Below, in pieces: positions 3,886 through 60,499 of a stretch of DNA of 64,000 nucleotides. This DNA is from Laetmonice hystrix. Taxonomy: Eukaryota. Position 1 is the stretch's first letter. Each line of letters begins with the position of its first letter. The position numbers and the translations under genes were made by a program. The notes under the pieces were generated by a model, which worked only from the letters and a program-made list of their open reading frames with translations, had not been told where the DNA came from and searched no databases. The stretch lies in the NCBI GenBank assembly GCA_965235115.1, contig OZ249436.1:18850001-18914000 (forward strand), written 5' to 3'.

Positions 3886-3981
3886 TTAGGAGAATTCTGG
3901 GAGTCTTCCTTCATGTTCAACGTGGTAGAGGATATCAGCGAGAGCATGTTCCACGACGGCCACGTGGGCTGCTTCGGACAT
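3886..3981 (-). CDS. ASH2L: ASH2L last coding exon ([31 protein letters not shown])
   Basis: Acceptor ccgccag, stop TAA at 3888-3886; SDI/DPY30-binding motif. Confidence 0.95.
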   Translation of the reverse strand: MSEAAHVAVVEHALADILYHVEHEGRLPEFS

Positions 3982-6900
3982 CTGGCGGGAAAAACGTCAA
4001 CTGAACATTACTATACTGTCCTCCCCTGGCCTGGGACGACCGGGTAATGTCAACAAGGGCCGACATATGGGATACCGCCCCACCCACCCACCCATCCCCG
4101 ATTTGAAGAAGGTGGACAGACAGAATAAGCCATCCCTTGCTTAAATAATACTATTATATGGGTACAATAAGGTACACTTTGGGGGTTATTTAATGAAGGT
4201 TTAGGGTCATGTCGAGAGGGCTATTTAATGAAGGTTTAGGGTCATGTCGAGAGGGCTATTTAATGAAGGTTTAGGGTCATGTCGAGAGGGCTATTTAATG
4301 AAGGTTTAGGGTCATGTCGAGAGGGCTATTTAATGAAGGTTTAGGGTCATGTCGAGAGGGCTATTTAATGAAGGTTTAGGGTCATGTCGAGAGGGCTATT
4401 TAATGAAGGTTTAGGGTCATGTCGAGAGGGCTATTTAATGAAGGTTTAGGGTCATGTAGAGATCTAAGGTCCTTGGTTTCCCTGTGTTCCCCGTCCTCTC
4501 CCTCACATGATCCATCCCCAAACTGGTACATATCAAGTCATCATCCTCTTTAATGAGGGTAGTCACGGTTATGTAGTAAAAAAGTAAAAAAGAATTTTTA
4601 AAACTACAATACAGTGTACATAATTCTTACCGCTAAACACTCAGCATCTTTGGGCGGGAACTTGAAGTCGGGGCCAAAGTTCATGACAATCTGGACAAAG
4701 GATATAAAACAGTTTTCATAAAATCATAAGCCAGAGCTAGTTTTTACGGGTTGTCTGAAAACTGACTCATGACTTTTATGTTTTCTAACTGTGATCAAGT
4801 CGAAAATGTAAAAGTCATGAGTCCACTGGCTTCTACTCCCCTTACCCTCACCCCTAGTCCTGGTACATAGACCTCTCCCAAAAAACTTACCCCTAACCCT
4901 AACCCTGTCCTTTACCCTAACCCCCAGTCCTGGTACATAGACCTCCCCCAGAAAATTTACCCCTATCCCTGAACTTTACCCTAACCCCCAGTCCTGGTAC
5001 ATAGACCTCCCCCAGAAAACTTACCACTATCTTTATCCTTTACCCTTACCCCTAGTCCTGGTACATAGACCTCCCCCAAAAAACTAACCCCTATCCCTAA
5101 CCCTGTCCTTTACCCTTACCCCTAGTCCTGCCCCCGGTTTCAGAAAGGCTCTAAGCAGCAAGCTTTAAGCTAAGCAGAGCTACGGCAGCCCATAGGGACA
5201 TATACCTTTAGTGTTTTTAAATTTCTAGATTGATTTTCATCGACATTTTGACAGTGATAATAATTTAAACGTGGGGGTAATATTTTCACCGCGGTGATAT
5301 TTCAACTACCATGAAAATGTCCATGAAAATCAATGTAGAAAGTTAAAGTGTCTGTGTACTTATGGGCCACCGTAGCCCTGCTTAGCTTCAAGCTTGCTGC
5401 TTAGAGCCTTTCTGAAACTGGGGTACATACACCTCCCCCAGAAAACTTATCCCTAACCCTAACCTTTACCCTACCCTTCTCCTCCCAATGTCGTGTGAAC
5501 GCCACCAGGGGGAGACAAACCTAAGTTGATTAACCCCTTGATCACTGACCGAGGCGTTCCTGTAGACGGACACGGCAGGATAATACGTTCCGTCAAAGAT
5601 GTCCTCGAACGCTGTGCCCATACACTCTCCATTTCGGTACATGACCAACTGAAAGATACCACCGCCAGATGGAGTTAACATCAACTATTTGCTCGGGTTC
5701 CTTCTCTGAATACTTTAGCAAACGAATAAGTCTGGTTATCTACTGTCTGAGCTACCAGAAACATGTTTACCTAATGCTATACAAATTTAGTTTCCCATCC
5801 ACAACGCCTTTATTTTCCTCTGTCACAATCTACATTACAGGGTTCCCACGTTGGCTATATTGAAATTTCGTGACTTCTCCATGACTTTTCCAGACTCTCA
5901 AATTTCATGATCAATTCTGGATAAAATTAACAAAATACACTAAAATCCCAGAATTGTCCCCTATATAGTACGTCGCGGAACTCTACACTTTAGACCTAAC
6001 ATGCAAAAACTGAAATGTGGTTCAAATGAAATCTCAAATTCCATGACTTTTCCATGTTTTTCTATTTTCCATGACTTTTCCAGGCCTGAAAAAACAAATT
6101 TCACTTTCCATGACCGTGGGAACCATGGACACAGAAGTCTCTGACCTCTAATTGAGCTCTATCTCTGAACGCTCACAACATTCTTTAGGTTCTTACCTTA
6201 CTGCCCTTGATACTCTGAAGATTTTTCTCTGTCTCTGTCACGTAATCCTTCTCCTCGAAGTACAGGTGCGACTTGAACTTCACCAAGGGCTGAAAATCAC
6301 GGAAATATACTCGAGATTAAAACAAGACAGAATCTAGTTCTGTTGCAACCCATGACGTGGCGACACCAGTATGTGCCCCGGAGTGGAGTGACCGGTTGGA
6401 CGAATCGTCAGTGACCTCATACATAATGTAGATTTACTACCTGAGTACAGGTAGAGATATATAATATATGAGATCATCTACACAGTACCTGTGATCAGGC
6501 CATTCTACATCAGTGTCGTTTCTACTCATGTTTACCAGGAGACATGTAAAGACTGGCCTTGTTTGTGTTGTTGATTTGTACCTCGTGTCAATAATTAAAA
6601 AAGAAAGGTAAAAGCACCCCCTCCCCTCCGGTTAATGGACCGCCAATTAAGAATCCTTATTTGAGAGTTCTGTCTCTACCTTTTTGCAGGTTTATGATCA
6701 TGAGGAGGGGAACTCTAAATTGTTTCCTCCTGCTAGGGCTTGCAGGAGTCTTGATCCATACTTCCAAGGCCCGTCCTACTCGCCTTTTAACTCGGAGTCC
6801 CAGCCAGTGTTGGGCGGTAGATCACAGAGGTTCGCACAGACAGACCACAATACGAACTCGTTTTTTTAGAGGCTCTGTCAATTTCTCCAGTGAATTTGAT

Positions 6901-9900
6901 TTGTTGTTATTACCTCTCTGAAAACACCGGTCCACCCAGCCACCCCTCCTGGTGCGAACTACAATGGACTGGTCGCTGGATTACGGCTGGCAGTGCTGGA
7001 GGCTGCCGTATCTCGTGGCCAACCCATCCCCCCCTGTGGATCGATAATGGTAGCGCGTGCATACCCACACCTTGGCATCACATTGGCCGCGCTAACTCCG
7101 CACCACCACCAGCAGCAGCATTAGAGGCAGCGTGCTGCAGTGTTATATACGCAGACGATGAAACCCCAGCCTTGAGGATCCCAGGCGGATGGGAGGGAAT
7201 ACCACAAACATGGCGAGATTACACGTCCTAAGTAAGTACACCTTGGGTTCGTGGCCGGCCGGGAGTCCCCCTACCTCCTCCCCGGGGCAGCAGTGAGGGC
7301 CGGGCGATGGGACGGCCTCAGTCCCTCCCTCCCCGTACGTTCGTGTCGTCGCCAGAATGGCCAACCAATGGATCGATTGTCATTCTCTCGGCCTGCCCAG
7401 TTCGACAATTAGCTGCTGCGAACTGCTGCTCTGGTGCTGGCCACTGCCTGTGGCCAGTGCATGTGGCCAACGACTATGGCCATCAGAGCCCGTGGCAATC
7501 CAGCCTGTCCTCTTTAAGACCGCCATCCTGTTTTTGGCTGACCTGTGGCCGGATCTCTTGCCGACTGTCAATACCATCATCCTGGTATACTGACTGAGAC
7601 CCATATATCACGTATCCTCTTTACGACCCTCTCTTACCAATATATCACAATATCAGAGTACTACTGACTTGTACCAATACAGCACGTAAAATGACTGTTT
7701 CTTGAAAAGAAAAATTACACATTGCAGACGATGTTTCTACATGTTTTATCAACGCATAAGATATTTGTGATTTCCACAGGCAGTTAATGAGGTTAAATAA
7801 TCACACAATAGAATTGACATGGCCTTGATGCGAGGTGTGAGTGTGACGGACAGTCACACTATGAATGACGGTTATAGTGGGCGTGACAGGTATAGCTGGG
7901 TACATGAGTGTGGTTGGTGTCAGGTGTATAAGATCAGGGGGTGCAGACTTTGACGGGTAGGAGGGGAGACTTGAGAACAGAAATAGACTCCTCGTTATTT
8001 ATGGTACATGGATAAAGACCGCAGTCCGACATTAGCTCCTAGAATAGATTAAGGATGGTGCTTTATACAAGATTTCTGAATGCCCCTTGGGAATTCAGGA
8101 CCACAAATTTTAACAAATCCGAGCCTCAAGCCTCATACATTTTTAAGACTTCTGACTGAGACTACTTATATCCTAGTTTGAGGATCATGGCACATTATAA
8201 AACAGTTCTGACTGGTCTGGAGTCGGGATGGCAAATTTCATGAATATATAAAACCCGATTCTGATTAAAGATGTCAGAGCCTATACTTGATAAAAGACCC
8301 CTGACTGAGACTCTCCCACTCAGAACATCCTGCATATACACACTCCCCCACTCACAACACATCCCGGATACAGTAGGCCACTCTCCCACTCAGAGCATCC
8401 CGGATATACAGGCCACTCCCCCACTCACAACACATCCCGGATACAGTAGGCCACTCTCCCACTCAGAGCATCCCGGATACAGGAGGCCACTCTCCCACTC
8501 ACAACATCCCACTCACAACATCCCGGATACAGGAGGCCACTCTCCCATTCACAACATCCCGGATACAGGAGGCCACTCTCCCACTCAGAGCATCCCGGAT
8601 ACAGGAGGCCACTCTCCCACTCACAACATCCCACTCACAACATCCCGGAAGACCCGGATACAGTAGGCCACTCTCCCACTCACAACATCCCACTCACAAC
8701 ATCCCGGAAGACCCGGATACAGGAGGCCACTCTCCCATTCACAACATCCCGGATACAGTAGGCCACTCTCCCACTCAGAGCATCCCGGATACAGGAGGCC
8801 ACTCTCCCACTCACAACATCCCACTCACAACATCCCGGAAGACCCGGATACAGGAGGCCACTCTCCCATTCACAACATCCCGGATACAGTAGGCCACTCT
8901 CCCACTCAGAGCATCCCGGATACAGGAGGCCACTCTCCCACTCACAACATCCCACTCACAACATCCCGGAAGACCCGGATACAGTAGGCCACTCTCCCAC
9001 TCAGAGCATCCCGGATATACAGGCCACTCTCCCACTCACAACATCCCACTCACAACATCCTGGATACAGGAGGCCACTCTCCCATTCACAACATCCCGGA
9101 TACAGGAGGCCACTCTCCCACTCACAACATCCAGGATACAGGAGGTCACTCCCCCACTCACAACATCCCACTCACAACATCCCGGAAGACCCGGATACAG
9201 TAGGCCACTCTCCCACTCAGAGCATCCCGGATATACAGGCCACTCCCCCACTCACAACACATCCCGGATACAGTAGGCCACTCTCCCACTCAGAGCATCC
9301 CGGATACAGGAGGCCACTCTCCCACTCACAACATCCCACTCACAACATCCTGGATACAGGAGGCCACTCTCCCATTCACAACATCCCGGATACAGGAGGC
9401 CACTCTCCCACTCACAACATCCAGGATACAGGAGACCACTCTCCCACTCACAACATCCCTGATGTCTTACTGACTGACCGTCTTCTGGACTGTCTGTCTT
9501 ACTGACTGACTGACAGACATCTCTACTGCACATCAAAGTACGACAAGAGATTTAAGAATTTCCTAAGTTTTCCTTCCATTTGAATATACATGCATCTAAC
9601 ACTCCGACCATATTTATGTTAATCATACTGCCTACTATCTGGTCTTTAGGCCTAGACTATCTGGTTACCTAAAGGTAACTCCCCCGAGTTTGGCCATTAA
9701 GACTAAGTTCCCAGTTCATCAGGCATGCCGATAGATTTACTCCCCCCCCCCCCGCAGTGTACCTCAGTGTATTACTGTACCCATGACCTCCGCGTTACCC
9801 GATTACCAATGATTAGTAGTGACGTAGATGTGGTCTGTTCCAGTTTTCCTGTGACGTCACACACGGACCGTGACGCGGAGTACGATTGGTGTGGATTCGA

Positions 9901-12900
9901 TCTTTGTGACGTCAAACACTTTACGTAGCAGGTGAAGATAACACTGATAAACAAACGGTAAATATTAAACTCTTACAAGTAAACTTTAAGTAATAAATAT
10001 CTGTATGCAGTCATGTAATGCCCCTAGATTTTATTGTTTATGTCCCAAGTCATCTGTGCGTTCATATGCTGCGATTGGTCAAGACCAATATCGAAGGTCA
10101 ATCCCCGTCTCAAGGGTCAAGAGTTGCCAGAGGATGATCTGACATTCGCACATATTGGTGGGGGGGGGGGGGGGTCAACATTTACCCCTGTTTGCCGCCG
10201 ACCTAGGTTTTCCTTATTATTATTATAGGTGGATCCTGTTTAATTTTTGCTGCCGACCCAGGGCACCCCCCCCCCCCCCCCCCCGCCCCTAGAAAATTCT
10301 GGATTCGCCACTGCCGTAGGCCGACAATCTCGGTGTAGGACAGCCTGGCAATCACGGTTCTATCTTACAACCGCCTCTCAATCCGACATGGTGATTGATG
10401 TCATGAGCTACTAATTACAACCCTCACGTGGCCCCCATGTTCCCGGAATGCACCACGAGCCCGAGTCGGTTAGATCCCAGCCCCGCGCCGCAGGCCCGAC
10501 CCGCCAGGCTATTTTAGGATGGTAGTTCCGAGAATAGCCGCGAGGTGGTGTTGCTGGTGGTTATCCTATCATGGTTCGTGGACCAGTTATGACTGAACCC
10601 GCGTGATTGACTGCTGACTGAATGCTGGGGGCCTGGACGCGAGGAAACTACTAGGCTGGTCAGAGGAGGCGAGAGACTCTATTGATCAAACCCGAATACA
10701 GACTGATACAGACTGACCAACCCCGAATACAGACTGACCAACCCCGAATACAGACTGACCAACCCCCAATACAGACTGACCAACCCCCAATACAGACTGA
10801 CCAACCCCCAATACAGACTGACCAACCCCCAATACAGACTGACCAACCCCCAATACAGACTAATCAACCCCAATAGAGACTGACCTACTCCTAATAGAGA
10901 CTGACCAACAGACAGACCATACCCGAATACAGACTGACCAACCCCCAATACAGACTGACCAACCCCCAATACAGACTGACCAACCCCCAATACAGACTGA
11001 CCAACCCCCAATACAGACTGACCAACCCCCAATACTGACTGACCAACCCCCAGTTTCCCATGGTTTTAAACGTTTGACACAATCACAAGTTTGTGAAAAC
11101 CAAGCATCCTGCCGACAGCCCTGCATGGCGAGCCGGTTCTCCTTGACCAAAAACATAGACGTCCAAAGTCCAGAGTTTCAAGGGGTTGGGTAAAGTACAA
11201 ACTGGCCAATGTCCCACACCATGATACCCCTGTGTGGGGCAGTGACCTTGCAGGTGGCCCCGAACTGGGACACGCGGTCCGGATCGTCCGGGGGGTGGGG
11301 GTTGTAGGTGGCCGCCACGCATAAAGCATGACTGAATCACGTCAGCCAGACTCCAGCCAGACATTTACCTTCTGGTGGGAGGAGGTGGGGGGTATGTGAG
11401 GGCGGTCTGGCCTCTAGACTCAACCTTCAGTCTCCAACCGTTGCCATCCGCAGGCCCTCAGTCAATGAGATGCTTCAAGCGAAAGGGTGGAGGCTTTAGG
11501 AAATAACTTGACGTGTGGCGTTGTAGGGGCTGATACAGGTAAGCTATGACAGTGGCTATTACAGCACGATATCATTAGATGTGTAGTGGCTGACACAGAA
11601 TGGCTTAAGTGTACCTAGTAGCTGATGAAGATTTGTTAAATGAGGCCCTGTGGGTAGCGGCTGGTACAACTTGATGTGTCTAAACAGCGGCTGATACATG
11701 ATAGAACTCAGCGGCTGATACATGATAGAACTTAGCGGTTGATACAATGACACAAATGGGCCCAATGCTTCCTACACCCCGTCAACCCCCACCCCAACAC
11801 TCCCCATACCGGTCCTACACCCCGTCAACCCCCACCCCAACACTCCCCATACCGGTCACCCCACCCCCTCCCCGGCTCTGTGGCCCCTGCCACTGCCTCC
11901 ACAGGTGTCGGGTTGTCAGGTACTGACACGATTAGAGTCGGTGAGTAATAGTTGTGTTAGAACACTGAATAGTAAAACGGACCTACTCTATCCCGGGTCC
12001 CAACTGCTGAAAGACATCAAACAAAAGAACTCTTGGACTAAGCTACTGCTCATAGTCTGACACATTGTTGGCAACACAGGGCATCTACACAATGAAGATT
12101 AAACCACTGAAAGATGGAACTCTAGTTGAATAACCTTTACATGCTAACATTTCCGTGTAGGTGAGAGCGGGGTGGCGGCGAGAGTAAGGTGGGAGGTTGC
12201 TCTCCAATGGAGGAATAACAATCTTACAAATTCCTACAAGGGCTGGCTCCGTCAGAGACATGCACTCAGACCCCTGCTCCGTCAGAGACATGCACTCAGA
12301 CCCCTGCTCCGTCAGAAACATGCACTCAGACCCCTGCTCCGTCAGAGACATGCACTCAGACCCCTGCTCCGTCAGAAACATGCACTCAGACTCCGGCTCC
12401 GTCAGAAACATGCACTCAGACCCCGGCTCCGTCAGAAACATGCACTCAGACCCCGGCTCCGTCAGAAACATGCACTCAGACCCCTGCACCGTCAGAAACA
12501 TGCACTCATACCCCGGCTCCGTCAGAAACATGCACTCAGACTCCGGCTCCGTCAGAAACATGCACTCAGACCCCTGCACCGTCAGAAACATGCACTCAGA
12601 CCCCGGCTCCGCCAGAAACATGCACTCAGACCCCTGCTCCGTCAGAAACATGCACTCATACCCCGGCTCCGTCAGAAACATGCACTCAGACTCCGGCTCC
12701 GTCAGAAACATGCACTCAGACCCCTGCACCGTCAGAAACATGCACTCAGACCCCGGCTCCGTCAGAAACAGGCACTCAGACCCCTGCCCCATACTCAGAC
12801 CCTGGCTCCGTCAGAGACATGCACTCAGACCCCGGCTCCGTCAGAAACATGCACTCAGACCCCTGCACCATCAGAAACATGCACTCAGACCCCGGCTCCG

Positions 12901-15900
12901 CCAGAAACATGCACTCAGACCCCTGCTCCGTCAGAAACATGCACTCAAACCCCGGCTCCGTCAGAGACATGTACTCAGACCCCCGGTCCGTCAGAGACAT
13001 GCACTCAGACCCCCGGTCCGTCAGAGACATGCACTCAGACCCCGGCTCCGTCAGAGACATGCATAGACCCCTGCTCCGTCAGAGACATGCACTCGAACCC
13101 CGGCTCCGTCAGAGACATGTACTCAGACCCCTGCACCATCAGAAACATGCACTCAGACCCCTGCTCCGTCAGAAACATGCACTCAGACCCCCGGTCCGTC
13201 AGAAACATGCACTCATACCCCTGCTCCGTCAGAAACATGCACTCAGACCCCTGCACCGTCAGAAACATGCACTCAGACCCCGGCTCCGTCAGAAACATGC
13301 ACTCAGACCCCTGCTCCGCCAGAAACATGCACTCAGACCCCGGCTCCGTCAGAAACATGCACTCAGACCCCGGCTCCGTCAGAAACATGCACTCAGACCC
13401 CTGCTCCGCCAGAAACATGCACTCAGACCCCTGCACCGTCAGAAACATGCACTCAGACCCCTGCTCCGCCAGAAACATGCACTCAGACCCCTTCTCCGTC
13501 AGAAACATGCACTCAGACCCCTTCTCCGCCAGAAACATGCACTCAGACCCCGGCTCCGTCAGAAACATGCACTCAGACCCCGGCTCCGTCAGAAACATGC
13601 ACTCAGACCCCTTCTCCGCCAGAAACATGCACTCAGACCCCTTCTCCGCCAGAAACATGCACTCAGACCCCGGCTCCGTCAGAAACATGCACTCAGACCC
13701 TGGCTCCGTCAGAAACATGCACTCAGACCCCTGCCGTCCGACCACCTACAACATACACCTGTCGGTACGCGTAGGGATGAGGTGGGGGTGGAGGGTGGGG
13801 GGTGGGTATTAGGGTCGGGTGAGGTGGGGTGCTTAATTACAGCTCACGGCCCTCTCGCATGTTACCTGGCCATTCACGAGTTACGCAAGTCGGCCCGGCT
13901 GCTAACAAAAAGGTTTTTATGGTCTACTGAGATCCACTCCAAGCATACGATACGTGTACCGAGATCGATTGAAAGGTTCCAATCACACCACAGGTGTAGT
14001 CGTACTCGTAATGATCCAAGAACTCGTTCTGTATCGGCCACTCCGACTTGGTGTGAGAAATCGGTTCATGGTAACTTCCCAACGGATTTTTTCGGTAGGG
14101 GTTTAGGGTTATGTTTTTAGGAGGTCTAGCAGGGTTCATACAAGCACGACCTCAGAAATTTCCAGGCCATTTCCAGGCTATTCCAGGCCCCAAAACATCA
14201 AATTCCAGGCCACCATGGGCTGGAATTTCATGTTCAAATAACATTTCACTGGACCAAATTATCAGGCTACCAACCTGAAGTACATGTACATTCTATTATT
14301 TTGGTAGCCGGATATTACTCAGGGCAATTTTATAAATTTCTATTTCAAAAAAGCTGAATTTCAAGGCTTTCCAGGCCTGGAAATAGGTGTTGTCAAATTC
14401 CAGGCTATTCCCGGAATTCCAGGCCATGTGCGAACCCTGTCTAGGGATGGGGGATAGGGGTTAGGGATAAGGTCAGGGCTAGGGATAATGATAGATCTAG
14501 GTCAGGGCTAGGGATAGTCATAGATCTTTACTTCCGCCCCAATTTCGTTACCATGAATTATATACCGGGAAATCCTGGGTTCTGGTCTGTATCCTGGGTT
14601 GAGCTGGTTACACTTTGTGTTCCAGTCTGTGCAGTGGTCAATGGCTTCAGATCGGTTACACTGTCTTCATACAGGTGACTCAACAGTGGATAAGTTCAAC
14701 CACGGGAGTTTGACACATGCATTGGCTGTGTCAGACTCCTGTGGTTCAAACCCAGTAAAACGTGCAATTTCGTTGCGGCTCCAACATGAAGACGAAACCA
14801 AAGCCTCGCGAAGGTGGCATGGTGGTTACTTCGACTGTTTGCCACCAGAGGGCAGCACTACGACTACTGTTGCACACGTGTGTGGTCTGTTTTGACCTCC
14901 ATCAGGTTGGCTATACCAATAAGCAAGGTCTTCTGCTTGGATCTCCAAGCTTTGTGTGTGCCGAGGGCTCTCCTTCGGCCTTCCTGATGTCCACCTGGTG
15001 TTCACTACAGGAAATACTCCGCGGCCATATCTGGGTATGTTTTGTAGCCGGCGGGGGCGGCGTGGGCCTAGTAATGCCTTCTCCAGTAAGCAAGAAAGGT
15101 GAAACTGCTACTTCAGTAGGTGCCCGTGTTGTTCTAACATGAATGCGGTGCCCTTTTGTAACAGGTCAGAATGACGGGCACTCTCAGGTAGGCAGGGGTG
15201 AAGCTGTAGTTTACTCAGTGTGCTTGGTTAGATCCTGTGCGCACTGGGCCACGCAGAGGTCAACGTTTGTGACAAGACCTATATTAGGTACCGCGTGTGT
15301 ATGTCACTAGGATGTTAAACTTAGGCGAGGATCCTGTACATAATCACTGGCAAGGTCGGGACGGTGGCCTTAAACTGGGGGACATCCCTTCCCCTATCAG
15401 TGGCCGGTCTCACAGGGCGTGACGTCACTTAACAGGGGGACCCCTCTCCCTATCAGGGGCCGGTCTCACAGGGCGTGACGTCACATGCCCGGTCATGGCG
15501 TCACATGTGACATCCTTTCTAAAGGGCAGATAAACAGGACTTACTTCATGGACTGTTTCAGAAATCTTACGTTTCCCTGTATGACATAATGAGAAGTCAT
15601 GAGGAAGGCCATTATTAAGTCCTGATTACTGAGTCATGTCCAGCGCTGGGTGGGCTGGCCGCTGGCGCAGGGCCCTGGTTGGGAGGGGGGCTGTCCCGTC
15701 CCGCCCGGCCGGTGCCGGTGTCGCGGTCTGTTTTCTCCGCGGTCTGAAATCTCCGGGAGGTTGGCTGCAGAGTCGTGTGTATTTGTATCGTTCTCGGTAA
15801 ACTATCCGAAATATCAGGTCAGGATTGAGTCTCACGTAATAACCCTTTTCTCCTCCGTCAGTTTTGGTCCATAATTTGCCTCTCCAGGCTGTCGTTTATT

Positions 15901-17148
15901 ACTGTTTGTAAGAAAACTCCACCGCCCATCAGACGACCGGAGGTGTGAGCCCAAACTGCGACACGCGCGTGCTCACCCGGTCTAGGTCGGCCTCTAAACA
16001 ATAGGAAACCATGCGCCCGGAGATTACAGACCGCCGGAGAAAACAGACCGCGACACCGGACTGGCGGCATTTACCACCAGTTGGCACATCTCAGCAATAC
16101 GTAGGCTGTACGATGGCGAGGCGGGCGGTGACTCAGGTAGCAGTGACTTGTAACTCGATACGTAACTACCTGGTTAGTAAGATCCCGCGCGGCTGCTGGA
16201 CAATAGTATAATAACAAAACGTCAGGTGTAACGACCACAGGTAAGCAGTTGTTGTACCAGTTAGTGGACCCCAGTTAATGGGTTCTCATCCTGCCAGCAG
16301 CGCACGCCTCGGCGACTTCAGTGGCTCACCGTGCAGTCTGTTAGGTCATGGACAAACTGGCCTAAAAACAGCTCGGCGGTGGATCTCTAGGGGCAGACCA
16401 TCGGACGGCAGACTTCACACGACAGGTCTATGACGAAGTGAAGTACAACTGTGACGGAGAGAAAGTACAATTGTGACGGAGAGAAAGTACAATTGTGACG
16501 GAGTGAAAGAACTGTGACCAGATAGTATCTGGAGTTGGTCAGACTGCGAGGATACGTTGGAACTGGTACGTAGACTATAGCCCCGTTTACATTACCAAAA
16601 AATAAGGGTGCTCGGTCCGGACCGAGAACGGTACCCCTAAAAAAGTGGCAATGTAAACCTGTCAGTCCGGACCTAAAGTGGACCGGTCCGAGACCCCCAG
16701 TAGGAGGTGATCTCGGTGCGGACCGAGGACGGTACCCCGTCCATAAGTGGCAGTGTAAACGTGTCACACGATCTGTCCTCTAACATATCGTCAAGAGATC
16801 GATGTTTTCCCGCAAAACGATGATGAGCATTTCACATTGGTTTCATTCACTTTGTGTAAAAAAAAAATCTGATTACGGTACCAAAATAACAACGACGCTG
16901 GAAATACCTAATTCTGACACTGTCTCAGGAAATGTCTTTTTAATAGCAGTAACCGGGTGATAACAGTACTACTATAATGGACAATGCCTTGCTTCAGTTG
17001 ACGGTAAGTCACGGGACATACCCCGGGGGTAGCCCTGGGGTTCCACCATTGTGTATGAATTATAAACCTTTCCCGTCCTCTTACTATAAGGGGTGGTTAC
17101 GCCCGTTTCCTGACTGTCACGATGGCCGCCTGCAGACCTCACTGTCCG

Positions 17149-17179
<31 letters not shown>

Positions 17180-20100
17180 ACACTGCCCAGGGGTAGACGG
17201 GATCCAGGGCCAGGCTGCATGGGACGGCCTGACTCGGGGCGGTCCACTGACGGAAGCTGGACCAGCTGGACCAGGCTGAGGGTACGTATAGCATGGGACG
17301 GCCTGACTCAGCGCAGTCCACTGACAGAAGCTGGACCAGGCTGAGGGTACGTATAGCATGGGACGGCCTGACCCGGGGCGGTCCACTGACAGAAGCTGGA
17401 CCAGCTGGACCAGGCTGAGGATACGTACGGTTGGGCAACAGGTAGGAGCTACCTGGATTAACGAGGGCTCGGCTAGGACAGGTGAGACCACCTGGCAGTA
17501 ATCCTAACAGATTAAAAGGGACCTGCCACTCATAAATGCCTTTAATCTGACACCTGCTGGGAGCACACCTGGGCAGGGTGGAAGTACTGTTAAAGGTATG
17601 CCATACACCTGAGCAGGTTCGGCGGGGGTGCTGCTGGAGGTGTGCCGTGCCGGGAATAATGTTTTATTCCTCCAATGTACACACCTCCGGTTGGGTGCTA
17701 CTAGGCGGACAGAGATATATTGGAGATAAGAGTTGACTATTTTCAGGTTATCTGCCGGCAGGGTGTATTTTGTGTGAGATTTGGTTATCAAACTGGCAAT
17801 GACCTAATTAGGCTTGGAGTGGATTATTAGTGCATCTTGTTAATTTGAATTAATTGCAACCTCGTTTTAGGCTGGGAGTGGACCGTCAGGTTTGACATTC
17901 GATTATCCTCCAAGGTACACACGTCACCTGCTGAGAGCTGGAGACACTATAGCAGTGTCAGAACCCTGATTTTTATGACGTCACGACCCCCACCGGGAAC
18001 CTCTCACAGAAGGCGGGTGCAACCCGTGCACAGTAGAGATAAGAGTCCCTATCTCCCCTAAAAGAAGTCACACATCCATCTAGGTGTCTGTGGGGGCTGT
18101 GCTACCGGTACACATACCTCATCATCCCAGGGACCGAGGTAGGTTGGTGGGTGACATGTCCCGACTTGTCCGGGAGGGACGGGCAAGGGGAGGGAGTCAG
18201 CCGGCGTGGAAAAAGGGGATCAGTCTGCGTGTAACTGGGGCTCAGTTTTCAAGTTAACCGGTGTCTGCATGAAAATGGGTCCAAGTCTGCATGTAAACTG
18301 TGTTAAGGTAAGTTGTTAACGGGGGGCTTTTATTAGTACTACGTACATCATATGAACATATGACAGCTACAGCAATTAAAGAATGTAGTGTATCATAGAA
18401 GCGCTGCAGTACACGTGTATCACTGAAATAGTTAGTCAGTGTAAGATACCGCAAATCAGTGTAGAATATTGTGTATACCGACAGCCAGTGTAGAATATTG
18501 TATATACCGGTAGTCAGTGTAGATACCATGCTATACCAGTACACTAAGTTTCACATTGCAGCACTCATCGCTTACATCATGAAAGTGTTTTTTTTTTTTA
18601 CAAAATGTACATGAACCACACCGGCATAGCGTGATGTCAGCTGGTATCTGGCTGGGTTCTACATGTATTTGGGGGAGGATGGATCATTCTGTTAGGGTAA
18701 TTAGTGGAGGTAATGTATGAAACATCCTGGCTGAAGGTGAAACCGCATGACCTCATATGTGGATCCCATTAGGGGCCGTTCAAAAATTACCTAACGCGCG
18801 GGGGTGGGGGTGGGTTATGTCCAAACGTTACGGACAGTGCTGAAGTACCATTGCAGAGCGTTATGGGGGGTGGGGTGGGGGTTCAGATTTGGCCCAAAAT
18901 AGCGTTACGTAATTTTTGAACGGCCCCTTAAAGGTGCTATTCGTGGGGAAAAGTTCAATTCTTTTATTTTTAATTTTGTTGACGTTTATGTGATCCCACC
19001 TATCATTGATATAGATTCACAACTAAGGAAATCAAAATTTTTCATGGATAACGGCACCAGTAGGGCTATCTCAGAAGGGCTGTGAAGACCCTGACACGCC
19101 CCCTAGACTCGACCACGGGAGATGGCGAGATAGGTTTCAAATGCTGCACACAGACTAATAGAAGGTTCATCAGGCCAATGGTATCGGTAGGAATTTGTTC
19201 TAGTGGTATGTGCATAATGTATGATAGGAGAAATGCCATTCTGAGCGAGACGAATAGCACCTTTAAGACCTAACTTGAGTGAAGTACCATGGCCTTGGTA
19301 GGGTGTAATACGGTGTGTACGATGTTGATAGGGTATCATGATACGGTATGTACGATGTTGATAGGGCATCATGGTACTTTCTTTCTTGATCGTAGGGTAT
19401 ACGATATGGACGATCTTGATAGGGTATCACTATTCAGCATGTATGATCTTGATAGTGTATCATAATATACGGTATGTTAATGAGTTTAAGAATTGACACC
19501 CACAGATCCTGTAACCGGTCATGTGACCCATCAAACCGGAAGTACTTCCGACAGGAAAACGCCACTTCTCTTTAAGTTTCTCACTGAGGAACTCGGTTCG
19601 CATTAAACACGTTTCGCTAAAAGAAAAGTCACCCTCTTTCCTGTCACGCAACATCGGCATTCTCTTCCCCTACTGGTTGTTTGATCAAGGGGCCGTGTCA
19701 TAAACTAGCTTAAATCTCCACAGAAAATACATAAGAACTTAGATACTGAAGGTTATGACACGCCCCCCTACAGATGAGGTACATGACATTCTCTGTTGAC
19801 CTTCCTCCTGTGTGTATCATTGTAAACCTGCTGCACCACAGCCGCCTTGCGAATGGAGACATGGAAATCTCTTTTTATCCTCCCCGCTGGTATTCAGGCA
19901 AAAAACAAGCATACCGACCGTATTTAAAGAAAGAAAATAAATTGTTAAGGCGCCGTTAGTTAAAAACGGTTCCACCAGAACCCTGCCATAGGTAAGCCCT
20001 CCACGCATTAGCTATAACTCTCATTGTATATCTAGAGCTGGGCTGGCGTTAAAAGCATAACTAGCATACCTGATTCAGTGACTGGGCCTCCGGGGTAGAC

Positions 20101-32100: not shown

Positions 32101-35100
32101 GAGTCGGGGAACCAGTCAGGATAATGATGATGGTGTCTGTTACCTGGGGCGGTCAGTTCCAGCCAGACTGATTGTCATTCTCAGGTGTACACAAGGTAAC
32201 CAGGTGGGATAATGATGGGGCCACACCTGGTGAATATCATCCCCAGTCAGTCTCACAAAGTCATGATGTTTACACATTCTCATCGTTAAAAAAACTGAAC
32301 TGACTCCAGCTGGTTGGAAACCTGTGACTGGTTAAATGTAGGTTAATGTGAGCGTTTAGCATGAACCATACCTGTGACCGGGGGTCAGAGGGACGCTGGA
32401 CGCAGATCGCCTCTTACCTCTCTCGTCACACACTCAACACCAGACACATGAAACAGGTGTCCTGAATACAACCACCAGACACATGGAACTTAAATATTAC
32501 ACCGGACAAGTGGAACTTGTGCCTTGAGTATTACACCGGACAAGTGGAACTTGTGCCTTGAATATTACACCAGACAAGTGGAACTTGTGCCTTGAATACG
32601 ACACCAGACAAGTGGAACTTGTGCCTTGAAAGACTACATCAGGCAAGTGGAAAATGTGCCTTGAATACATCAGACAAGTGGAACATGGGCCTTGAATATT
32701 ACACCAGACAAGTGGAACTTATGCATTGAATAACACACCAGACAAGTGGAACGTGTGCCTTGAAATACTACATCGGACAAGTGGAAATGTGCCTTGAATA
32801 CGACATCAGACAAGTGGAACATGGGCCTTGAATACGACACCGGACAAGTGGAACATGGGCGTAGAACCTCCAGACAAATGAAACATCAGCTTTGAGTTTA
32901 CTATTGCAGACAAATACACCTACACCCTGAATGGTTTGCAATCTATGGAAGGGGGGAGCCCCTCCCCCTCCTTCCTACACACGGCCTAAGTTTAAAATGA
33001 CATTGGTCGCCAAGGTAGGGCCGGACATGTCGACTATGGCATACCGACACCGTGACCTTTGACCTCTCCCGGTGAGAGCAATCATATCATGTACGTATCC
33101 TCCTACCACTACAACCCCCCAGCCTCCACCCCCCCCCCCCCCACACACACACATGTATGTACTCGTACAATGTATACCTGTTGCTCCCTCCCCTCCAGAT
33201 TACATCTCACCTTGTGATTGCTCCAGGCACAGCAGCCGCAAGGGTCGTGAGAGTGCAGACAGTAAGAACGCTCTCTCCGTACGGGACCGTATCAAGGCGT
33301 TCGAGGTCAGCAAACCTGACCTCCAGGAAGTCAAAGTTCGCGAGGGCGCCAAGCCCAGGAAAAATAAACCCACCAGTAAGGCGTTTGAAGAGTTTGAGAG
33401 CAAGGGCATCCTCATAGGATTTGTAAGTACCAGGACATTATTGGTAAATGTCGTCCCCTCCCAGTAATTATTAAACTTCATGACTGATCACCAAACCAGA
33501 TTCAATTTTGTATTCTAAAATATTCAATAGGACCCTCCCCCTAATTATATAGAATTTATTAAATTTCCGGAACTGATTATGATTGTGGTAGTGGTGAATG
33601 AGGGGAACACAACTGACGCGATGCTTCGCGATTATGGAAATCTAATAATGATCTTCAGTGAGTGTGAACACACCTGAAGCTGCACGTCGCTGAAGCTTCA
33701 GGTGTGTTCACACTCACTGAAAACCATTAGGAGCTTTTCAGAATCGCGTCGCATCGCATCATGTCTGTTCACCGCTTAAGAAAAATATATCTCTATTACA
33801 GCTACCAAACCTAACACTAACTTCTAGTCCCGGTCCCCAGACCTCTCTGCCCGTAACCCCTACCCCTACACCCCAACCCCATTTCACATGGGAGTAACAT
33901 GCCCCTTACATACGTGTTACAGGGGGGCGGCCCGCGCAGACGCCGCGGAGAGGATGGCGAGGACGAGGACGAGGCTGAGGACCCGGATGGCGGCGGTGGG
34001 TCACGTGACTCGCCCACCCTCGGTATGGTGTTACCGAGTCCGACATCAGGCCTCAGTCAGGAGGACACGCCCACCTCCAGCAGGTGAGAGACGCCGCAAC
34101 CCGCAACCCCCCCCCCCCCCCCCCCCAACCCACTTACCCGCCAGTGTTCGCTGTGGTTCTATTGACCCTCCCTTTCTACGTGTCAAGATCATGTCACCAG
34201 GAGGACAGCGTTTTAAACCCCAATCCTGTTGACCCAGTTGACCCACAACAGGACCCTCAGACTGTGGGTTTCGTTGAGCCTGCTGTCTTACACGTATCTC
34301 CAGGTAACTGATGCTATAACCGCTAACAGATTCTCACACAGATTAACGTGAAACGCTAGATGATTCGTGGAAGGTATGCTAAGAGCTACGAGTCGGGCAG
34401 GTGAACAGCGGAGTTGTGACAATGTCCCAGTCTCTTTGTCTGACTGTGTCACAAGTCAGGCAGAGAGATTGGGACATTGGCAGCCGCGCCCCCTCCTAGC
34501 GCCATTAAAATTTTATCACGGGAAATATAAATGTCACATGCAAATTATGTGAGCGTGGCTGGCCGTGACCCAGATGCTGGTGTGTGGGGGCGGTACAGTA
34601 AATATGGGATGGCCCCTGTGAGTCTGAACGCAGTAGGACATTTATGGAACGGACCCTGACAGTGACTGTGTCCGAGATTTCCATCCCAACCACCCAGTGC
34701 CCGTGTAGACTGACAAAAACCTTCCATGCCTTGTGAGGTCAACTGGCAGATATAACCGCGGTACATCAGTGGTTAAAATACCTGTGGGTTCAAACCTTGC
34801 TTTCCCTACTCTTTCGACCCTGGATATGAAAGTGGTGATATAACTGGATCTGGATATGAATCTGAATGAAGACCGTGGTTATTTTCGGATTATTTCAGAG
34901 GTCTGGATGAGGATGAAGGCGTGCACACGATGGAGAGTGAGGAGGATGAGCTGTCAGCCGTTCAGAGGAACACAGACATTCTCAAGTCGGTAAGTTACCG
35001 GAGTTTTACTCAAGTCGGCAAGTTACCGGCGTTTTACTCAAGTCGGTAAGTTACCGGAGTTTTACGACATGGACTGATGCCGGTAGCAGTCAGTCAAATA

Positions 35101-41100: not shown

Positions 41101-44100
41101 CCGTCACACCAGCCTGAAACACTTACAACACCACCATCACACCAGCCTGAAACACTTACAACACCACCATCACACCAGCCTGAAACACTTACAACACCAC
41201 AAGACAGTTGTTGTGAAGAGTTCACGAAGTTCATGACCTCTGTTAATGTGTTTCAGGAGAGAACGCAGCCCTGACTTCTGATACCACCCAAGATATCACT
41301 GACGATGTAAGTGGCTGTACACATAACCAATGTTTTACACACAGAACAAGTTGTGCATTATTTTACTGAAAAGTTAAAAAATGGAATTCACAATGGTGTT
41401 CTGTATAAAATTATTATAAATAACCAGGATGCATTAAAGACTTAAAGAAATATTTGGGGTGTGTTTGAATCACACTGCTTCACGATATGTGACCGTATCT
41501 GTGACCCCTATAACGTCTGTCTGCTGTAGGAGGCGCCACCCCGTCCACCCCCGCCATGTTGGCGTCAGGCAGGCGTCACCCTCCTCCAGCCTGACGCCTG
41601 GCCACGTCCGCGTCACAATACGCCCACGTCTTCGGCAGACGCCCACCATCACCACAGTCCTCCGACCACCCCACCACACCAACATCACTACACACGTCGG
41701 CTGACACATGACCAACATCATTACGGTGGGAGGGACCCGAGTCCAGGTGGTACACCACACCGTTACACAAAGGACCCACTTTTCCCTGCTCTGCACAGTT
41801 ATGACGCTGATCTCTCCTGGCGGCGGCCAGGCCAGGCGGACCACAATCGCCACCTGGTGGCCGATAAAGAAATCAACAAAATGTCGCCACCTAGTGTCAG
41901 AGACGACACTGAGTCGGTGTTGGTTTCCAGCAGTTACTCCGACTTCCCACAAGCCTCCCAGTTCCTACGGCCTGCATCCTACCGACACTCGAAGGAAACT
42001 TCACCATTTAAAGATTCTGATACCGTTGACGGCATTAAGGATAGTGTTATACGAAACAAGAGGTATTACAGTACAGCTGTGAAAATGGAGGCTTCAAACC
42101 CTGAACTCATAGCACAACAAAACAAACCCTTCCCACTGCTAACTCCTCCCTTAGTTGTAAAAACTGTGGAACCCAATTCTCCCGATGGTCATATCTCTGA
42201 AACGCATGCCGTATGGGAAAAGTCGAAGGAACTTCAACCCCCGACAGAGAAAAGGTATTTGCCTGAATCTGTGACTGAGAACAGAACTGGGCTTACTGCG
42301 AGCTGGAGAGATTTCAAGTCAAAACAATTCCCTGGACAGGAGCCTGACCAGTCCCTGCCTGGAGGAAGGGAAGATGGTATTAATAGGAACAAAACAAGAA
42401 CAGCCAATTACAACCAAACTGTAAGACAACCGGAAGGTCGTCTGCTGAACATCAGCCAATCAGCACAGCCGTTACATTTCCATGGTCCTGACTGGGCCCC
42501 CAGGACTAAACATCATACCCATTGGAGGCCATCAAGTCCAATCGAAACAACTCAAGGACAAGAACTCTGGGAAACAAGTACAGCCCAGTCTGTTCAAGGT
42601 CATCGTTCAAGGTCACACACAAGCTGGAAAGACTCGGCCCCAAGGTCACCTCTTGAGTACAAAAAACATCCTTGGACAGTGTCAGGGCCTGAGCAAGGAA
42701 GGACAGGTGGCTGTCAAAGGTCAGCTGGTGATCTCCATGTTAAAGATGTCGATACTCCGGGCCCTCGGAGGTCAGCTGTTGATCTCCATGGCCCAGATGG
42801 CAGTACTCCAGGCCCTCGGAGGTCAGTTGTTGATCTCCATGGCCCAGATGGCAGTACTCCAGGCCCTCAGAGGTCAGCTGTTGATCTCCATGGCCCAGAT
42901 GGTGGTACCTCCGCAGGTCCTCAGATCTTGGCACGACTCACTCATGGACCGTTGCTGTTTAAGCCAGAGCAACGACCAAGCACAGAACTTAGTGGAGAGC
43001 AATCATTTCCAGGTCACAGTGCCCTGTACAAGCTGACCCGTGACAGTAGACAAACAGACACAGAGTGCGAAACAAGAGACCCCCAGGACCACCCGTATCA
43101 TCAGTCTGGGGAAGAGCCCTCGAAACTGGTGCACCTACCAGATCGACGACTACAGGCTTCACTTCAAGATAAAGAGGTTCAAAACCTACCTTTCTCCAAC
43201 CAGTCCAAGCAGGGTCACCAGACTAAGGTACACTTTGATGATCCTAATGATTACAGCCAGCATCCAGCAATAAAAGGTGGAGAACCCGGGAACTCGCCCC
43301 TGTCCCACATGCAGTGGGACAACTATAATAAACAGCCCCAGTACCCCAATAGACAGAGATTTCTCACTCATACTAGCATCGTCCATCCATCAGATTTACT
43401 TGAGGATGAGTTGGCTGTCCGGTGGCATGGTCTGCGGCGGAGTCAGCCTCCTGTCCCGCGAGACAGTGTCCCGTCAGAGCAAGGGATTGAATCAAATGTT
43501 ACCACTACCCACCCCAAGCCTCTCCAGCACCCACACCTCAAGCCTGTCCGCCAGTACCCTCTGGAAGAGTCCTCCAGAGCCGATCGCAGTGATGATGCGG
43601 ATAACCACCAAACATCGGATGACTCCGTGGACCGTGGGTTGCCATGGAAAGATTTACCAGGAGGTCACCACCAAGAGCACGTGTTTAGGTTCAACTTTGA
43701 TACCAAACCAACGGAAGTCTAACAGTAGTGGACATGAAGGGCCAGACTATATTTTTAGAGTGAGCCCCACAGCTTTTCTTTTAGGGGGTGGGGACAAACA
43801 CTAAGGAAACCGGGCAATGCCCAGAGGGATATGTCGGGAAGTGTCCCTTGTGTTGCTTCATATGCTGCGAGTCAAGTGTCCAGTCGCTGACATGAATTCA
43901 GCTGTTCTATGTTACACGCAGGCAGTTGTTCACAAACTACAATTCAGTGTTGCCTTCTTGTACTCCCATTTGTCAGTCCACACTAAAGAGGCACACTAAA
44001 CGTAGACTTTTTATCAAATTGCTCGCTTGTCGGCAGGGGAACTATCTTGAGTTTTAGCACATATCGTCCCGATAAGGGCATCATTCTCCACAATAAATAT

Positions 44101-47100
44101 CAGTTATATTTTAAGGATGACTGGAACGGGGAAATGAAATGGGAAATCTAGCTTAAGTAAGTCTACAATTGCACAAGAAGCTTTGCTTTTTAAACAAGAG
44201 TGATTGAAAACCTTTGCAAAGTGTCGATCCGACACTTTGTTGTAGAGTCAAGTTGATTTACCTATTAAAGAGGCTGCTGGTAATGTCTCACACCTTTAAT
44301 TACTGTCTGCTTGGGCAGCAGTACATTTAATAAACAATCATTTAATAAAAAAGGGAATGTTCAATAGAAAATTTCGCCTTGGCTTGGCCATCTGACAGCC
44401 AACATCTCTAATGTGTTACAGATTTGAGCAAATATAATGGAGATGAGATAGTTTGAGATGGCACTGCAGGGATTCAAGACTTGACGCCCACCTGTAATCA
44501 CTGAAAGCAAAATGTGAATGACAAGTAAAAGATTTTCAGGGTTTGAGGAAGAAGCACACACATTAGATGCCTCAAAAACAATAGTGATATTAGAAATAGT
44601 TGTCAGTTGTTTCTTTGTTTTTATATTATCGACTATGCAAAATCTGAACCACCACAATAGGTTGAATCGCCACTTGCCAGATGATCACAAACTGGCGTTT
44701 GATGAAAGGTCCCATGCACTATTTTGTCGGATAAGGTGGCCCAGACTCGGTGGCAATTTTCTTGGGTTCGGGGTTGATATGTGAATAGTGTTAAATATGT
44801 ACATAGTCATCAGTATTTATAGTGTAAGAAAGGAGCCATTTTTGCTGGTGCTTTAGGCATTGCCCTTTACAACTTAATCCGCCCCGTGAGTCAGTATTGT
44901 TGAAGGATAGAATCCATTTCAACAGAGTGTGGATCTCTGAATATCAACACCTTGTGCAGCTTTAGAAAACAGAAAACCAAAGTTTTTTCTCCAGAGCCAC
45001 GCTTATTTATAAACCTGGACGTTTTCTGATAAACCACTGCACAATCACAGAAACATATCACGAGGTCTCCAGTATCCAATCACAATGCTCAAGTATTGTT
45101 GAAGGGGTAAATAGGGAAGATCAAAGTCCATGTCTTCTGGAGATAAATATGAACACAAACCAGATGGAAATCGTAAGAAATCGTAAAAAGATTTGAGAAA
45201 TTCTCCTGCAGAGTCAAATGAAACAATATGAGAAAGGTGTGGTTCAAATCCAATATTTACTCAAAGAAGGTGCACTGATGAACAAAAGGTACTTATTTAA
45301 GAAAATAAAACTACTTAAGAAGAACAGTTTTGTATGTCAAATGGTCGTACAGTATCTGACCTGTTCATTCAGATTTCTATAAACCAAAGACATATCAAAA
45401 CAGAGAAAAATAAAAACTGGCACTGGTACAAATTATAGACCTCTACATAATATCCTATCAACCCAAAGTTAACTTTCTGATCCAACCAAAGTTTATCTTC
45501 CTGATCCAACTAAAGTTGATCTTTCTGCTCCAACCAAAGTTTATCTTCCTGCTCCAACCAAAGTTTATCTTCCTGATCCAACCAAAGTTTATCTTTCTGA
45601 TCCAACCAAAGTTATCTTCCTGCTCCAACCAAAGTTTACCCCCTGATCCAACCAAATTTTATCTTCTAGGTCAAACCAAAAATGATATTTCTAATCTGAT
45701 ATCTTATGAGAAAATCTAAACATCGAGTCCTCATCACAATGCAGTAATACAGCATGTGTTGCAAACAAACATTCTCAAACTGAATTCACTCTGCTTTGCG
45801 TTTCACCAATCTGGGAAACCTTGTTGGAGTTTCTTTAGTTTCTAATGCAATATCATGTTATGTGTTTGCTGAGCAAGCTGTTACACTAATTAAACTGTGT
45901 GGATCGTCCGTGCAATAAATATTGATTACCACGGTACAAACGTTTTTAGGTAATCCTTGATGAGACTAGAAGTTGGACTGCTATATTTTGTATGTAATAA
46001 AGAGACAAGAATACCTGTTGTATATCTTGGTGTCCAACCCATATCACAGCTGAGGAGAAAACTCGCATATCGAAAATCAGGTCCCAAACAAAATTACTGT
46101 TCTATAACATGTATATTTAACGATTCTTTCCTCACTAAAAAGGTACTACATAATCCAAATATGATATTGACCTATTTTCATAACTGCACACGGTAGTGGC
46201 TGTAGTAGTAGGAGGGAAGAACCAGACCAATACCTGGGCCCAAGTGGGATGGGTTCAGGGAAAGTTCATGTTGAAGTCAAAAGTCAGGTAACATTTGCAG
46301 CCAGAGTTAATCAGTGGAGCAAAGTCTCACCAAACTCCAGTCACAAGACACCCCTATCACTCTGACGCGCCGCTGTAGCTGGTAGCCAGAATCCTTCGTT
46401 GTGAAGGATAACTAATAAAATTGTTGCCATGTTAAACAGGATGCAGTTGAGTTGTGTTTTTATACAGTTCTATTTTGCCACATCTCATGATATATTACTA
46501 TTAGTTTAGAAATGCACACACAAATACAATAGTTCAATCCATGCACCAACACAATAGATACTTAAGTAATCAATTAAAATAACCCAGAAATATTAAGCTG
46601 TCAAATAAGATAATGCTCCTCGCTGCTCCCTACAATTTAATCCTTGTTACGGCACATGATTACAAACCTTACTTCTATAACCTGATCAAAGAAACTACCT
46701 TACAAGCAGTCCATTTTGTGTTAGGTCCATTTTTCAAACATCAGGAAGCCATTACAGAAGGTTAGTCTCATTTAAAATGCAAACCTTCGGTATTGTCCAT
46801 TTTGTGAGCAAAGTACAGAGGTAAAGAACCCTGCTTTGGTGTCTTTTTATCACGCTTGTGTTTTTTGTGTCAAACATACAATGAATGTGTCAATACTACT
46901 GAAAACTGTGGACAAAACATAGCCAACAGTCAACCCATTTCTGGCAATGATATTACAAACTACTTTTGGCCGGCATTGAATTTCTTCCGTTTTCAAAGAA
47001 AATGTTAAGCATCTTTCCAAGTCCTAAACCTGATACTTTAGACCTGTAAATGAAAACTGACCTTATCCTTGGAAGTTTTGGGCAGTATCTTGTGTGGGTC

Positions 47101-55625: not shown

Positions 55626-56302
55626 ACCCAACAGACTCAATAACAAGTATAGAGGACATGTGGATGTCACAGCCGGGCAAGTGGAATTTTGTAGTCCACT
55701 TGTCCTGTGGCAAGTGTTTAATTCGAAAAATTGGCCACCCCTGCCGTTACGTTTCTGACAGGCAATTTCACGTGAAGAGTAGGTAGAATCCAAGGGAAAA
55801 GTTACTAAATGTTTGGAATCTGTTTATAGAAGTGGCAGATAAGGAAGTGGTTTGTAGATTTCCATGCATTTGGGAAATTTGAATTTCGATGCAGTGCAAT
55901 TTAAGCGAATCAGATTGCTCCGATTTTGCCGGCACCGTAATAAAAGCAAAACCTCCACGGATTTCCACATCCGATCGATGCACCATAATGCGGTTCCTAA
56001 GGTACAGAGCTCGCTTCGCGAGCCGCATTGCGGCTCGCTGCGCTCGCTATAACTATAAGTCAGTCAGAAAATCGGACAGACCTCTGCTTGGGAGAATAGG
56101 GTCACTCCAGAGGAAGTTGGCTAGGCGCGCAAAGTTTTAACTAATCTTATAGGTAGGCGCTCAGTCTTTTGCACGCCTTGGAACAATTTTTAGGTGCGCT
56201 ATGGCACGCAAGTGCAATTGCGCACCTCAAAAGACAAGCCCAGCCCTGCTTAGTTATGCACCCAATCGCAAGCAGCAGGGCTCTGCCACACACGGCAGCA
56301 GG

Positions 56303-57690: not shown

Positions 57691-57745
57691 CAGCAGGGCT
57701 GGGGGTGGGGATGTAGTGATCCAGTGTGAATTGATGCGCTAGTAT

Positions 57746-60145: not shown

Positions 60146-60499
60146 GCTCCGACTCTTGAACTGTTGAAGTTGAGGGGGGATGGGGTACTATCTTAGCAGA
60201 CAGAGCATCACAACTAATGTCATCTACACCAAATGAGCCACACAGTTTTCTAAAGTTCAACTCTCTGCCTTTTTTCTTCCGCCTTTACATTAACTCGAAA
60301 CTCAGAAAGTTATACAAACCCGGGGCCGGGGGTTTTGTTATGTCCCGCGGAATCCGCCATTTTTATTTTTATTCTCGTCTCGTGATAACTGAGGTTTCGA
60401 TTTAGGCCCGATAAATATTCAATAACGTGTTCTTAGATAAGAAATTAATAGCAATATAAGTAGGATCTAATATATATTGCTTTTAAAGAAAATATTTCA

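Follow-up and report, generated by a model that had tools for sequence, protein, structure and literature searches.

A 40.8-kb ASH2L intron in Laetmonice hystrix that probably houses an old antisense membrane-protein gene

Introduction

Nested protein-coding genes make up ~6% of fly, 2.1% of worm and 0.5% of human genes according to excerpts of PMC3786989, which also give 20–34% of fly nestings as conserved within Drosophilidae. Published surveys, as summarised in excerpts of the same paper and of PMC3488318, which takes a neutral-gain view, treat nesting as common and mostly neutral. The closest described counterpart of the locus reported here is the Drosophila pair timeless2 (timeout)/2mit, in which, as excerpted from PMC3786989, one large intron of an essential nuclear housekeeping host holds an antisense guest whose product spans the membrane once and has a disordered cytoplasmic tail. 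Here, we describe a 64,000-nucleotide stretch of Laetmonice hystrix (assembly GCA_965235115.1, contig OZ249436.1, positions 18,850,001 to 18,914,000, forward strand; "the window", whose own numbering is used throughout), in which intron 13 of ASH2L extends over 40.8 kb. With considerable confidence, we read the locus as a cis-spliced ASH2L gene whose long intron 13 houses one old, independently transcribed antisense gene for a membrane protein.

The tim2/2mit nesting is long-lived, being found in flies and honeybee, and was lost in Lepidoptera (PMC3786989, in excerpt), a loss that parallels the guest loss in one lineage proposed below. Unlike in that pair, the host is ASH2L, and the guest, known here from sequence, has ten coding exons and a low-complexity ectodomain with no Pfam domain, whereas 2mit carries a leucine-rich repeat (LRR) ectodomain. 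As in metazoan nested genes generally, the whole coding sequence (CDS) lies in one host intron on the opposite strand, and the host is spliced normally; unlike most fly nestings, the pair is common to animals about one ASH2L change per site apart. No paper on an ASH2L-hosted nested gene, nor on a link to annelids, molluscs or recursive splicing, was found in a search that had most subscription journals outside its reach. The ASH2L host/guest pair is apparently new, and of a common kind.

Results

An intact ASH2L gene with a real 40.8-kb intron

Intron 13 of the minus-strand ASH2L gene (6290–47061; 40,772 bp) is a phase-0 GT-AG intron, with the donor GTCAGT following position 47062 and a pyrimidine-rich acceptor, TTTCAG, preceding 6289. 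The flanking exons (47258–47062 and 6289–6197) match residues 352–415 and 416/417–441 of the 534-aa (amino acid) human chain without gaps, and a 17-exon model yields a single uninterrupted frame of 633 aa. No piece of ASH2L was found above noise inside the intron by tblastn with 16 of the 120 listed relatives as queries. A sequence-only reading of the window had joined 47062 to 6289 in phase 0 with no ASH2L coding sequence missing, and the splice-site ends, the gapless human match and the intact frame all bear this out. Its remark that every other intron is shorter than 1 kb holds for exons 2 to 17, where the remaining introns measure 143–940 bp, but a tentative exon 1 would give an intron 1 of 7,204 bp. 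It had further described the SPRY domain as split: the exon 13/14 junction does lie in the SPRY region, but within an insertion loop left out of the crystal constructs 3toj and 6e2h and outside the domain core. Homology is continuous over the N-terminal PHD/winged-helix region, the SPRY domain and the C-terminal segment, bearing out membership in the ASH2L family, and the protein is 55–61% identical to most named lophotrochozoan ASH2L. Like human ASH2L of the COMPASS/MLL complexes (6kiu_T, 9yl3_T, 3toj_A), it is a full-length orthologue with an intron position common across animals.

Four runs (X1–X4), none of them recorded as RNA, were mapped over 41300–48100. A 1,536-nt X4 contig covers 47062–47257 and runs on before 47062 into 30 letters identical to window 6260–6289; it also skips from 47257 to 47922 at GT-AG ends and then enters the exon at 48953. 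Judged by length, the 495 nt of this contig before 47062 fit 348 nt of CDS plus ~147 nt of untranslated region (UTR) from ASH2L exons 14–17. A spliced contig joining both ASH2L halves, a junction that the sequence-only reading had named as a check, is thus present, running from 47062 straight into 6289. Among the listed joints and loose ends of the four runs, spliced forms occur in X4 alone, and X4 was taken as RNA because its contigs show these spliced joints. Contigs of X1–X3, which are DNA-like (three of three such runs), cross the donor unspliced (46988–47340) and tile 41.3–48.1 kb in pieces. ASH2L intron 13 is real, the host protein is intact and the intron is removed normally.

A spliced contig cannot separate cis- from trans-splicing, the region is rich in long tandem arrays, and no listed contig spans the whole of 41300–48100. 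An assembly artefact or trans-splicing, in which the ASH2L halves would not share one molecule at a distance of 40.8 kb and some of 6.3–41 kb would be misplaced, is nevertheless very improbable: the donor is bridged by DNA-like contigs in all three such runs, the guest exons are ordered and in phase over 18 kb, and the same neighbourhood recurs in independent assemblies. Scarcely more credible is a stepwise removal of the intron by recursive splicing, as the sequence-only reading had suggested. Flies use recursive splice sites in introns of about this length, which places intron 13 within their range, and one AG/GT site near 14275 has passable scores. There is, however, no excess of ratchet sites, with one recursive-type site on the ASH2L strand and one on the opposite strand against a mean of 1.7 in 100 shuffles; the donor score of the 14275 site sits at the threshold of a splice-site model trained on 25 acceptors and 24 donors only. 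Cis-splicing of an ordinary ASH2L gene around a guest accounts for the odd intron without exotic splicing.

Probably a single antisense gene for a predicted membrane protein

On the plus strand of intron 13, open reading frames (ORFs) join through canonical, in-phase splice sites into ten exons (25558–43722; 1,758 aa), so that the whole modelled CDS is contained in this one intron, antisense to its host. Two related loci (L062 and L065, see below) contain counterparts of the exons starting at 34899, 35357 and 35748, and those at 37012, 39357 and 41257 were placed by phase and splice signals only. The first exon encodes a hydrophobic leader (windows at aa ~17–28), an ectodomain rich in Ser, Thr and Pro (34%) and, by hydropathy, one transmembrane helix at aa ~327–358 followed by a Cys-Cys-Cys-Lys-Lys stop-transfer signal. 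The tail comprises ~1,400 aa of low complexity with one conserved motif and a Thr-x-Val end. The product is thus a predicted type I membrane protein with a PDZ-type C-terminus. Syndecan, neurexin and podocalyxin are single-pass membrane proteins with PDZ-binding tails; the guest resembles them in its Ser/Thr-rich ectodomain, single helix and C-terminal PDZ-type end, a likeness of layout with no sequence relationship shown, and differs from this comparison set in the length of its tail.

The guest is conserved in relatives. Its first exon has three homologues among 8,000 scored candidates, and its second (33227–33422) 27 matches at E ≤ 0.001 among 1.84 billion representatives. One homologue of 827 aa (P0152) combines leader, helix, cysteines, motif and matching C-terminus in a single chain and aligns to model residues 327–606 across the exon 1/2 join (E = 6e-18). 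In two pairs, a membrane-exon homologue and a motif-exon homologue also lie on contigs of equal length (P0125/P0132, 4,379,780; P0122/P0142, 5,454,185). A C-terminal S/T-x-V/L/I end is kept in the window, in P0152 and in the related loci L020, L062 and L064–L066. No Pfam family, LRR included, scored above cut-off for the nested ORFs or their homologues, all ESM Atlas matches to the nested protein stayed below 0.9 with no cluster giving a name, and a word-based search with the exon 35748–36824 matched none of 4,097 candidates. No equal-sized contig connects 20 of the 27 motif-exon matches (or L065) with the listed ASH2L fragments. Conservation of the guest, together with the lack of any Pfam match, transposon domains included, among 135 intron ORFs, disfavours a chance ORF or a transposon. 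The guest would represent a membrane-protein family without a name and with clear conserved motifs.

The sequence-only reading had counted at least two plus-strand coding units. Plus-strand coding sequence is indeed present, but it joins in phase as one gene, and P0152 holds both parts in one chain. Two or more genes, namely one for a single-exon membrane protein (25558–26907), one for a disordered protein and possibly another in 7–23 kb, would accommodate the stop at 26907 that the 25.5-kb frame has of its own, a possible start exon (7210–7231) in phase with an acceptor at 33199, and an exon-like segment score of 33.6 in the ORF 22714–23271. We regard such a split as improbable: besides the single chain of P0152, the donor at 26873 is of phase 2 and matches the acceptor at 33227, L062 and L065 retain this exon order, and the 135 ORFs are devoid of Pfam matches. 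The plus-strand units are most likely one antisense gene, as judged from phase and homology. X4 contigs, which carry no strand information, lie over pieces of 41597–42652 and over 43869–44247, 44552–45421 and 45463–46372; the lack of X4 cover at 46521–46974 and in several other bins was not taken as evidence.

The same site and traces of the guest in related animals

The position of intron 13 is ancestral and common across animals. In a range of animals, raw gene calls continue into an intron at this ASH2L codon. Among 77 metagenome loci carrying ASH2L exon 13, 34 have an intron of 48–4,110 bp at this site, 12 show no gap, 26 end too early or are ambiguous, and five contain traces of the nested gene. 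Compared with the 34 short-intron loci, the window intron is 10–800 times longer, with the protein unaltered. The five loci (L020, L062, L064, L065 and L066) have these traces in antisense orientation behind the same ASH2L donor. In L062 the entire guest CDS is antisense within ~9.2 kb behind the donor, and in L065 the entire CDS except the start; both contain the membrane exon, the motif exon, the short middle exons and the C-terminus, all in the order of the window. Two hidden Markov models (HMMs) of the nested gene match only these two among the 77 loci, and a C-terminal pattern matches only the window, L062, L064, L065 and L066 in 912,632 bases scanned. L020, whose C-terminus is a variant one, has a large antisense exon rich in Ser. 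In the window and all five loci, the nested stop codon lies 0.4–3.6 kb from the ASH2L donor.

The nesting thus seems neither recent nor peculiar to this genome, with traces of it in five of 77 related loci. Where the sequence-only reading had genes moving into a housekeeping gene, one gene does lie antisense inside a real ASH2L intron, and the same five loci speak against a recent, lineage-specific move. The synteny of intron content, which it had proposed to compare, extends in these loci to traces of the guest behind the same donor; exon 14 lies beyond the DNA fetched for them.

Three further observations concern ASH2L in relatives. In L062, L064, L065 and L066 (and in L069–L071), an extra intron splits exon 13 after about codon 31. 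L020 and L062 are two distinct ASH2L types under one whole-genome shotgun (WGS) prefix, each with a nested gene behind its donor, and represent two animals or paralogues. Among annotated ASH2L models (P0008, P0029, P0024), those of Batillaria and Nucella break off exactly at the exon 13/14 junction, and the Elysia model leaves out the exon that follows; these breaks in gastropod models hint at a long intron there. In genomes with such an intron, an annotated ASH2L can end prematurely at the junction.

Age of the nesting

In a tree of 25 ASH2L proteins, the window groups with Capitella, Helobdella and one further transcript (support 97/96). A grouping of the window with molluscs was rejected (approximately unbiased test, p-AU 0.015). 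L064–L066 fell with bivalves in a quick tree and with annelids, grouped with the window, in two careful trees; reading L062–L066 as bivalves, as the quick tree had it, did not hold in the careful ones. L020 lies on the Capitella/Helobdella side together with four short-intron loci. Forcing the nested lineages and P0006 into one clade was rejected (p-AU 0.024), in a test under LG+G4 on fragmentary rows, with eight of the 77 loci in the tree and the group named after earlier trees had been seen. This pattern suggests an old nesting followed by loss in the short-intron lineage.

The main annelid split dates to the early Palaeozoic. That the nesting was already present in the last common ancestor of the main groups of annelids, or even in one that annelids share with molluscs, and was kept by regulatory constraint is a tentative proposal that we consider rather unlikely as a whole. 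The wider range is hinted at because the gastropod models break at the junction and because the bivalve placement of L064–L066 was not rejected. If true, the nesting would be among the oldest known of protein-coding genes and would mark a lophotrochozoan family of PDZ-anchored surface proteins, still nameless. If its age holds, the pair, kept by some lineages and lost by others, would also be a rare genomic character bearing on how annelids or lophotrochozoans are related.

A model for the locus and its persistence

In the arrangement we favour, ASH2L would be an ordinary cis-spliced minus-strand gene with intron 13 at an old, widespread position. The intron would be long by virtue of the guest and its upstream DNA, from which its length follows, swollen with minisatellites and small elements as elsewhere in the window. 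The guest would be transcribed from a promoter inside the intron toward the host donor, ending near the AATAAA at 46414, ~650 bp short of that donor. Its protein would be mucin-like outside, with probably palmitoylated cysteines beside the membrane, a long disordered tail and a PDZ-binding end, probably a surface adaptor anchored by PDZ scaffolds. The gene's arrival in the intron would be ancient and would probably predate the divergence of the main annelid lineages sampled; at least one lineage would since have lost or relocated it, with shrinkage of the intron. Persistence would most simply be by inertia, since un-nesting requires a clean relocation, and would involve no functional link to ASH2L. 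Neutral persistence is favoured because the literature finds no general host–guest link (PMC3786989 and PMC3488318, in excerpt) and because one lineage lives without the nesting.

Selection may instead have kept the nesting, through guest enhancers in the 19 kb toward ASH2L exon 14 or through convergent transcription that tunes ASH2L by collision, pausing or premature polyadenylation in cells expressing the membrane protein. Such regulatory constraint concerns persistence in a way compatible with the favoured structure; as an explanation we hold it to be unlikely, if less so than the rivals to that structure. The arrangement occurs on both sides of a deep annelid split, the distance between nested stop and host donor stays short in the window and all five loci, and an intronic enhancer has been proposed for tim2/2mit (PMC3786989, in excerpt). 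Against this, the 34 short-intron loci leave no space for a guest, and blastn of the intron against the loci gave three matches at E ≤ 1e-5, all in coding exons, with the relatives' DNA upstream of the start codons barely covered. Work cited in the excerpted PMC3786989 found no expression correlation for 109 human and 752 fly pairs. The ASH2L pair offers a natural test case for asking if nestings of great age persist as neutral relics or under constraint.

Several points weigh against an old, singly nested and independently transcribed guest. On the read side, the four runs share a single sample and study, from which the assembly itself may derive; mapping was confined to 41300–48100, with the continuity of 6290–41300 and the acceptor end outside it; the library type of X4 is not on record, its RNA status following from its joints; and no splice joint of the nested gene appears in X4 contigs over the mapped interval. 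In the coding model, the last nested exon scores below background (−17.4) despite an open frame of 730 codons. Among the relatives, many of the 34 short-intron loci are close kin; exon 14 was outside the fetched DNA in all five nested loci, where nesting is deduced from the 5′ side; the window, L062, L065, L066 and P0152 supplied the C-terminal pattern, leaving L064 as its sole unplanned match; L020 is weakly linked (best blastp E 1.0–2.8, no HMM match); and the WGS prefix common to L020 and L062 may hold two animals or two paralogues. The trees are of one gene, with fragments filling 11–36% of columns, and the bivalve placement of L064–L066 reaches p 0.065.

Further content of the intron and the surrounding window

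The coordinates of host and guest are collected in Table 1.

Table 1. Features of the ASH2L locus and its nested gene (window positions)
Feature	Position	Strand	Basis
Tentative ASH2L exon 1 (start codon)	60320..60360	-	In-phase join to exon 2; unsupported by homology or reads
ASH2L exons 2–7	53115-52801, 52532-52443, 52126-52038, 51686-51607, 51418-51323, 51179-51108	-	tblastn of relatives; continuous frame, GT-AG ends
ASH2L exons 8–13	50851-50752, 49957-49870, 49595-49381, 49033-48953, 48012-47923, 47258-47062	-	tblastn; frame, GT-AG; X4 joint 47257>47922, loose end into 48953 exon
Span of ASH2L exons 2–13	47062..53115	-	
ASH2L intron 13	6290..47061	-	Spliced contig, intact frame, ancestral position in SPRY insertion loop
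ASH2L exons 14–17 (stop included)	6289-6197, 5648-5550, 4690-4631, 3981-3886; span 3886..6289	-	Homology, frame
Repeat-rich stretch upstream of nested CDS (presumed promoter, 5′ UTR exons and regulatory DNA)	6290..25557	.	Presumed role
Nested gene, first coding exon (leader, ectodomain, one transmembrane helix, stop-transfer)	25558..26873	+	Homologues, hydropathy
Nested gene, motif exon (most conserved cytoplasmic motif)	33227..33422	+	27 matches, E ≤ 0.001; 3′ exon boundary shared by most of the matches
Nested gene, internal exons	33923-34083, 34899-34989, 35357-35431, 35748-36823, 37012-37074, 39357-39412, 41257-41306	+	AG/GT, in phase
Nested gene, last coding exon (class I PDZ-ligand-type Thr-x-Val end)	41530..43722	+	Frame, conserved C-terminus; X4 pieces of 41597-42652
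Probable nested gene 3′ UTR	43723..46420	+	X4 contigs (strand not given by them); last AATAAA at 46414

Minisatellites are present in the intron and not special to it: the "more than a dozen" noticed at first sight amount to 22 arrays covering 19% of the intron, similar to the eight arrays that cover 15% of the remaining window. Of the several miniature inverted-repeat transposable elements (MITEs) it was said to contain, three hairpin or terminal-inverted-repeat elements (15715–16059, 18771–18928 and 33602–33773) are MITE-like. A giant transposon or endogenous virus, suggested by a higher GC content (49% vs 41–44%), was dropped because the interval is not flanked by long terminal repeats and the search for mobile-element domains gave none. 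Searches with Rfam and for tRNA (ARAGORN) gave no match in the intron stretch examined.

From ASH2L exon 14 to the start of the nested gene, 19 kb of sequence contain repeats and no recognised gene. The best coding-like segment there is the plus-strand ORF 22714–23271 (186 codons), which scores like true exons and has no Pfam match; it is overlapped at ~23090–23125 by promoter-like motifs that we take to be E-box and ETS/YY1-like. Positions 7210–7231 (+) combine a start codon in good context with a perfect donor and could be an alternative first exon.

Outside the intron, a 33-bp minisatellite (48181–48972) has a unit that copies the end of ASH2L exon 11 with its donor 24 times, creating a row of decoy donors. 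A probable first coding exon of an AAK1-like kinase (60987–61100, plus strand; six of six PDB matches are AAK1, weakly, at E 0.23–0.41) stands head-to-head with the tentative ASH2L exon 1 at ~630 bp. The tentative ASH2L intron 1 contains a near-perfect inverted repeat of 2.85 kb (56302–59146) resembling a foldback element, with arms 97–99% complementary around a 55-nt centre, and related ends recur at 59337–60140.

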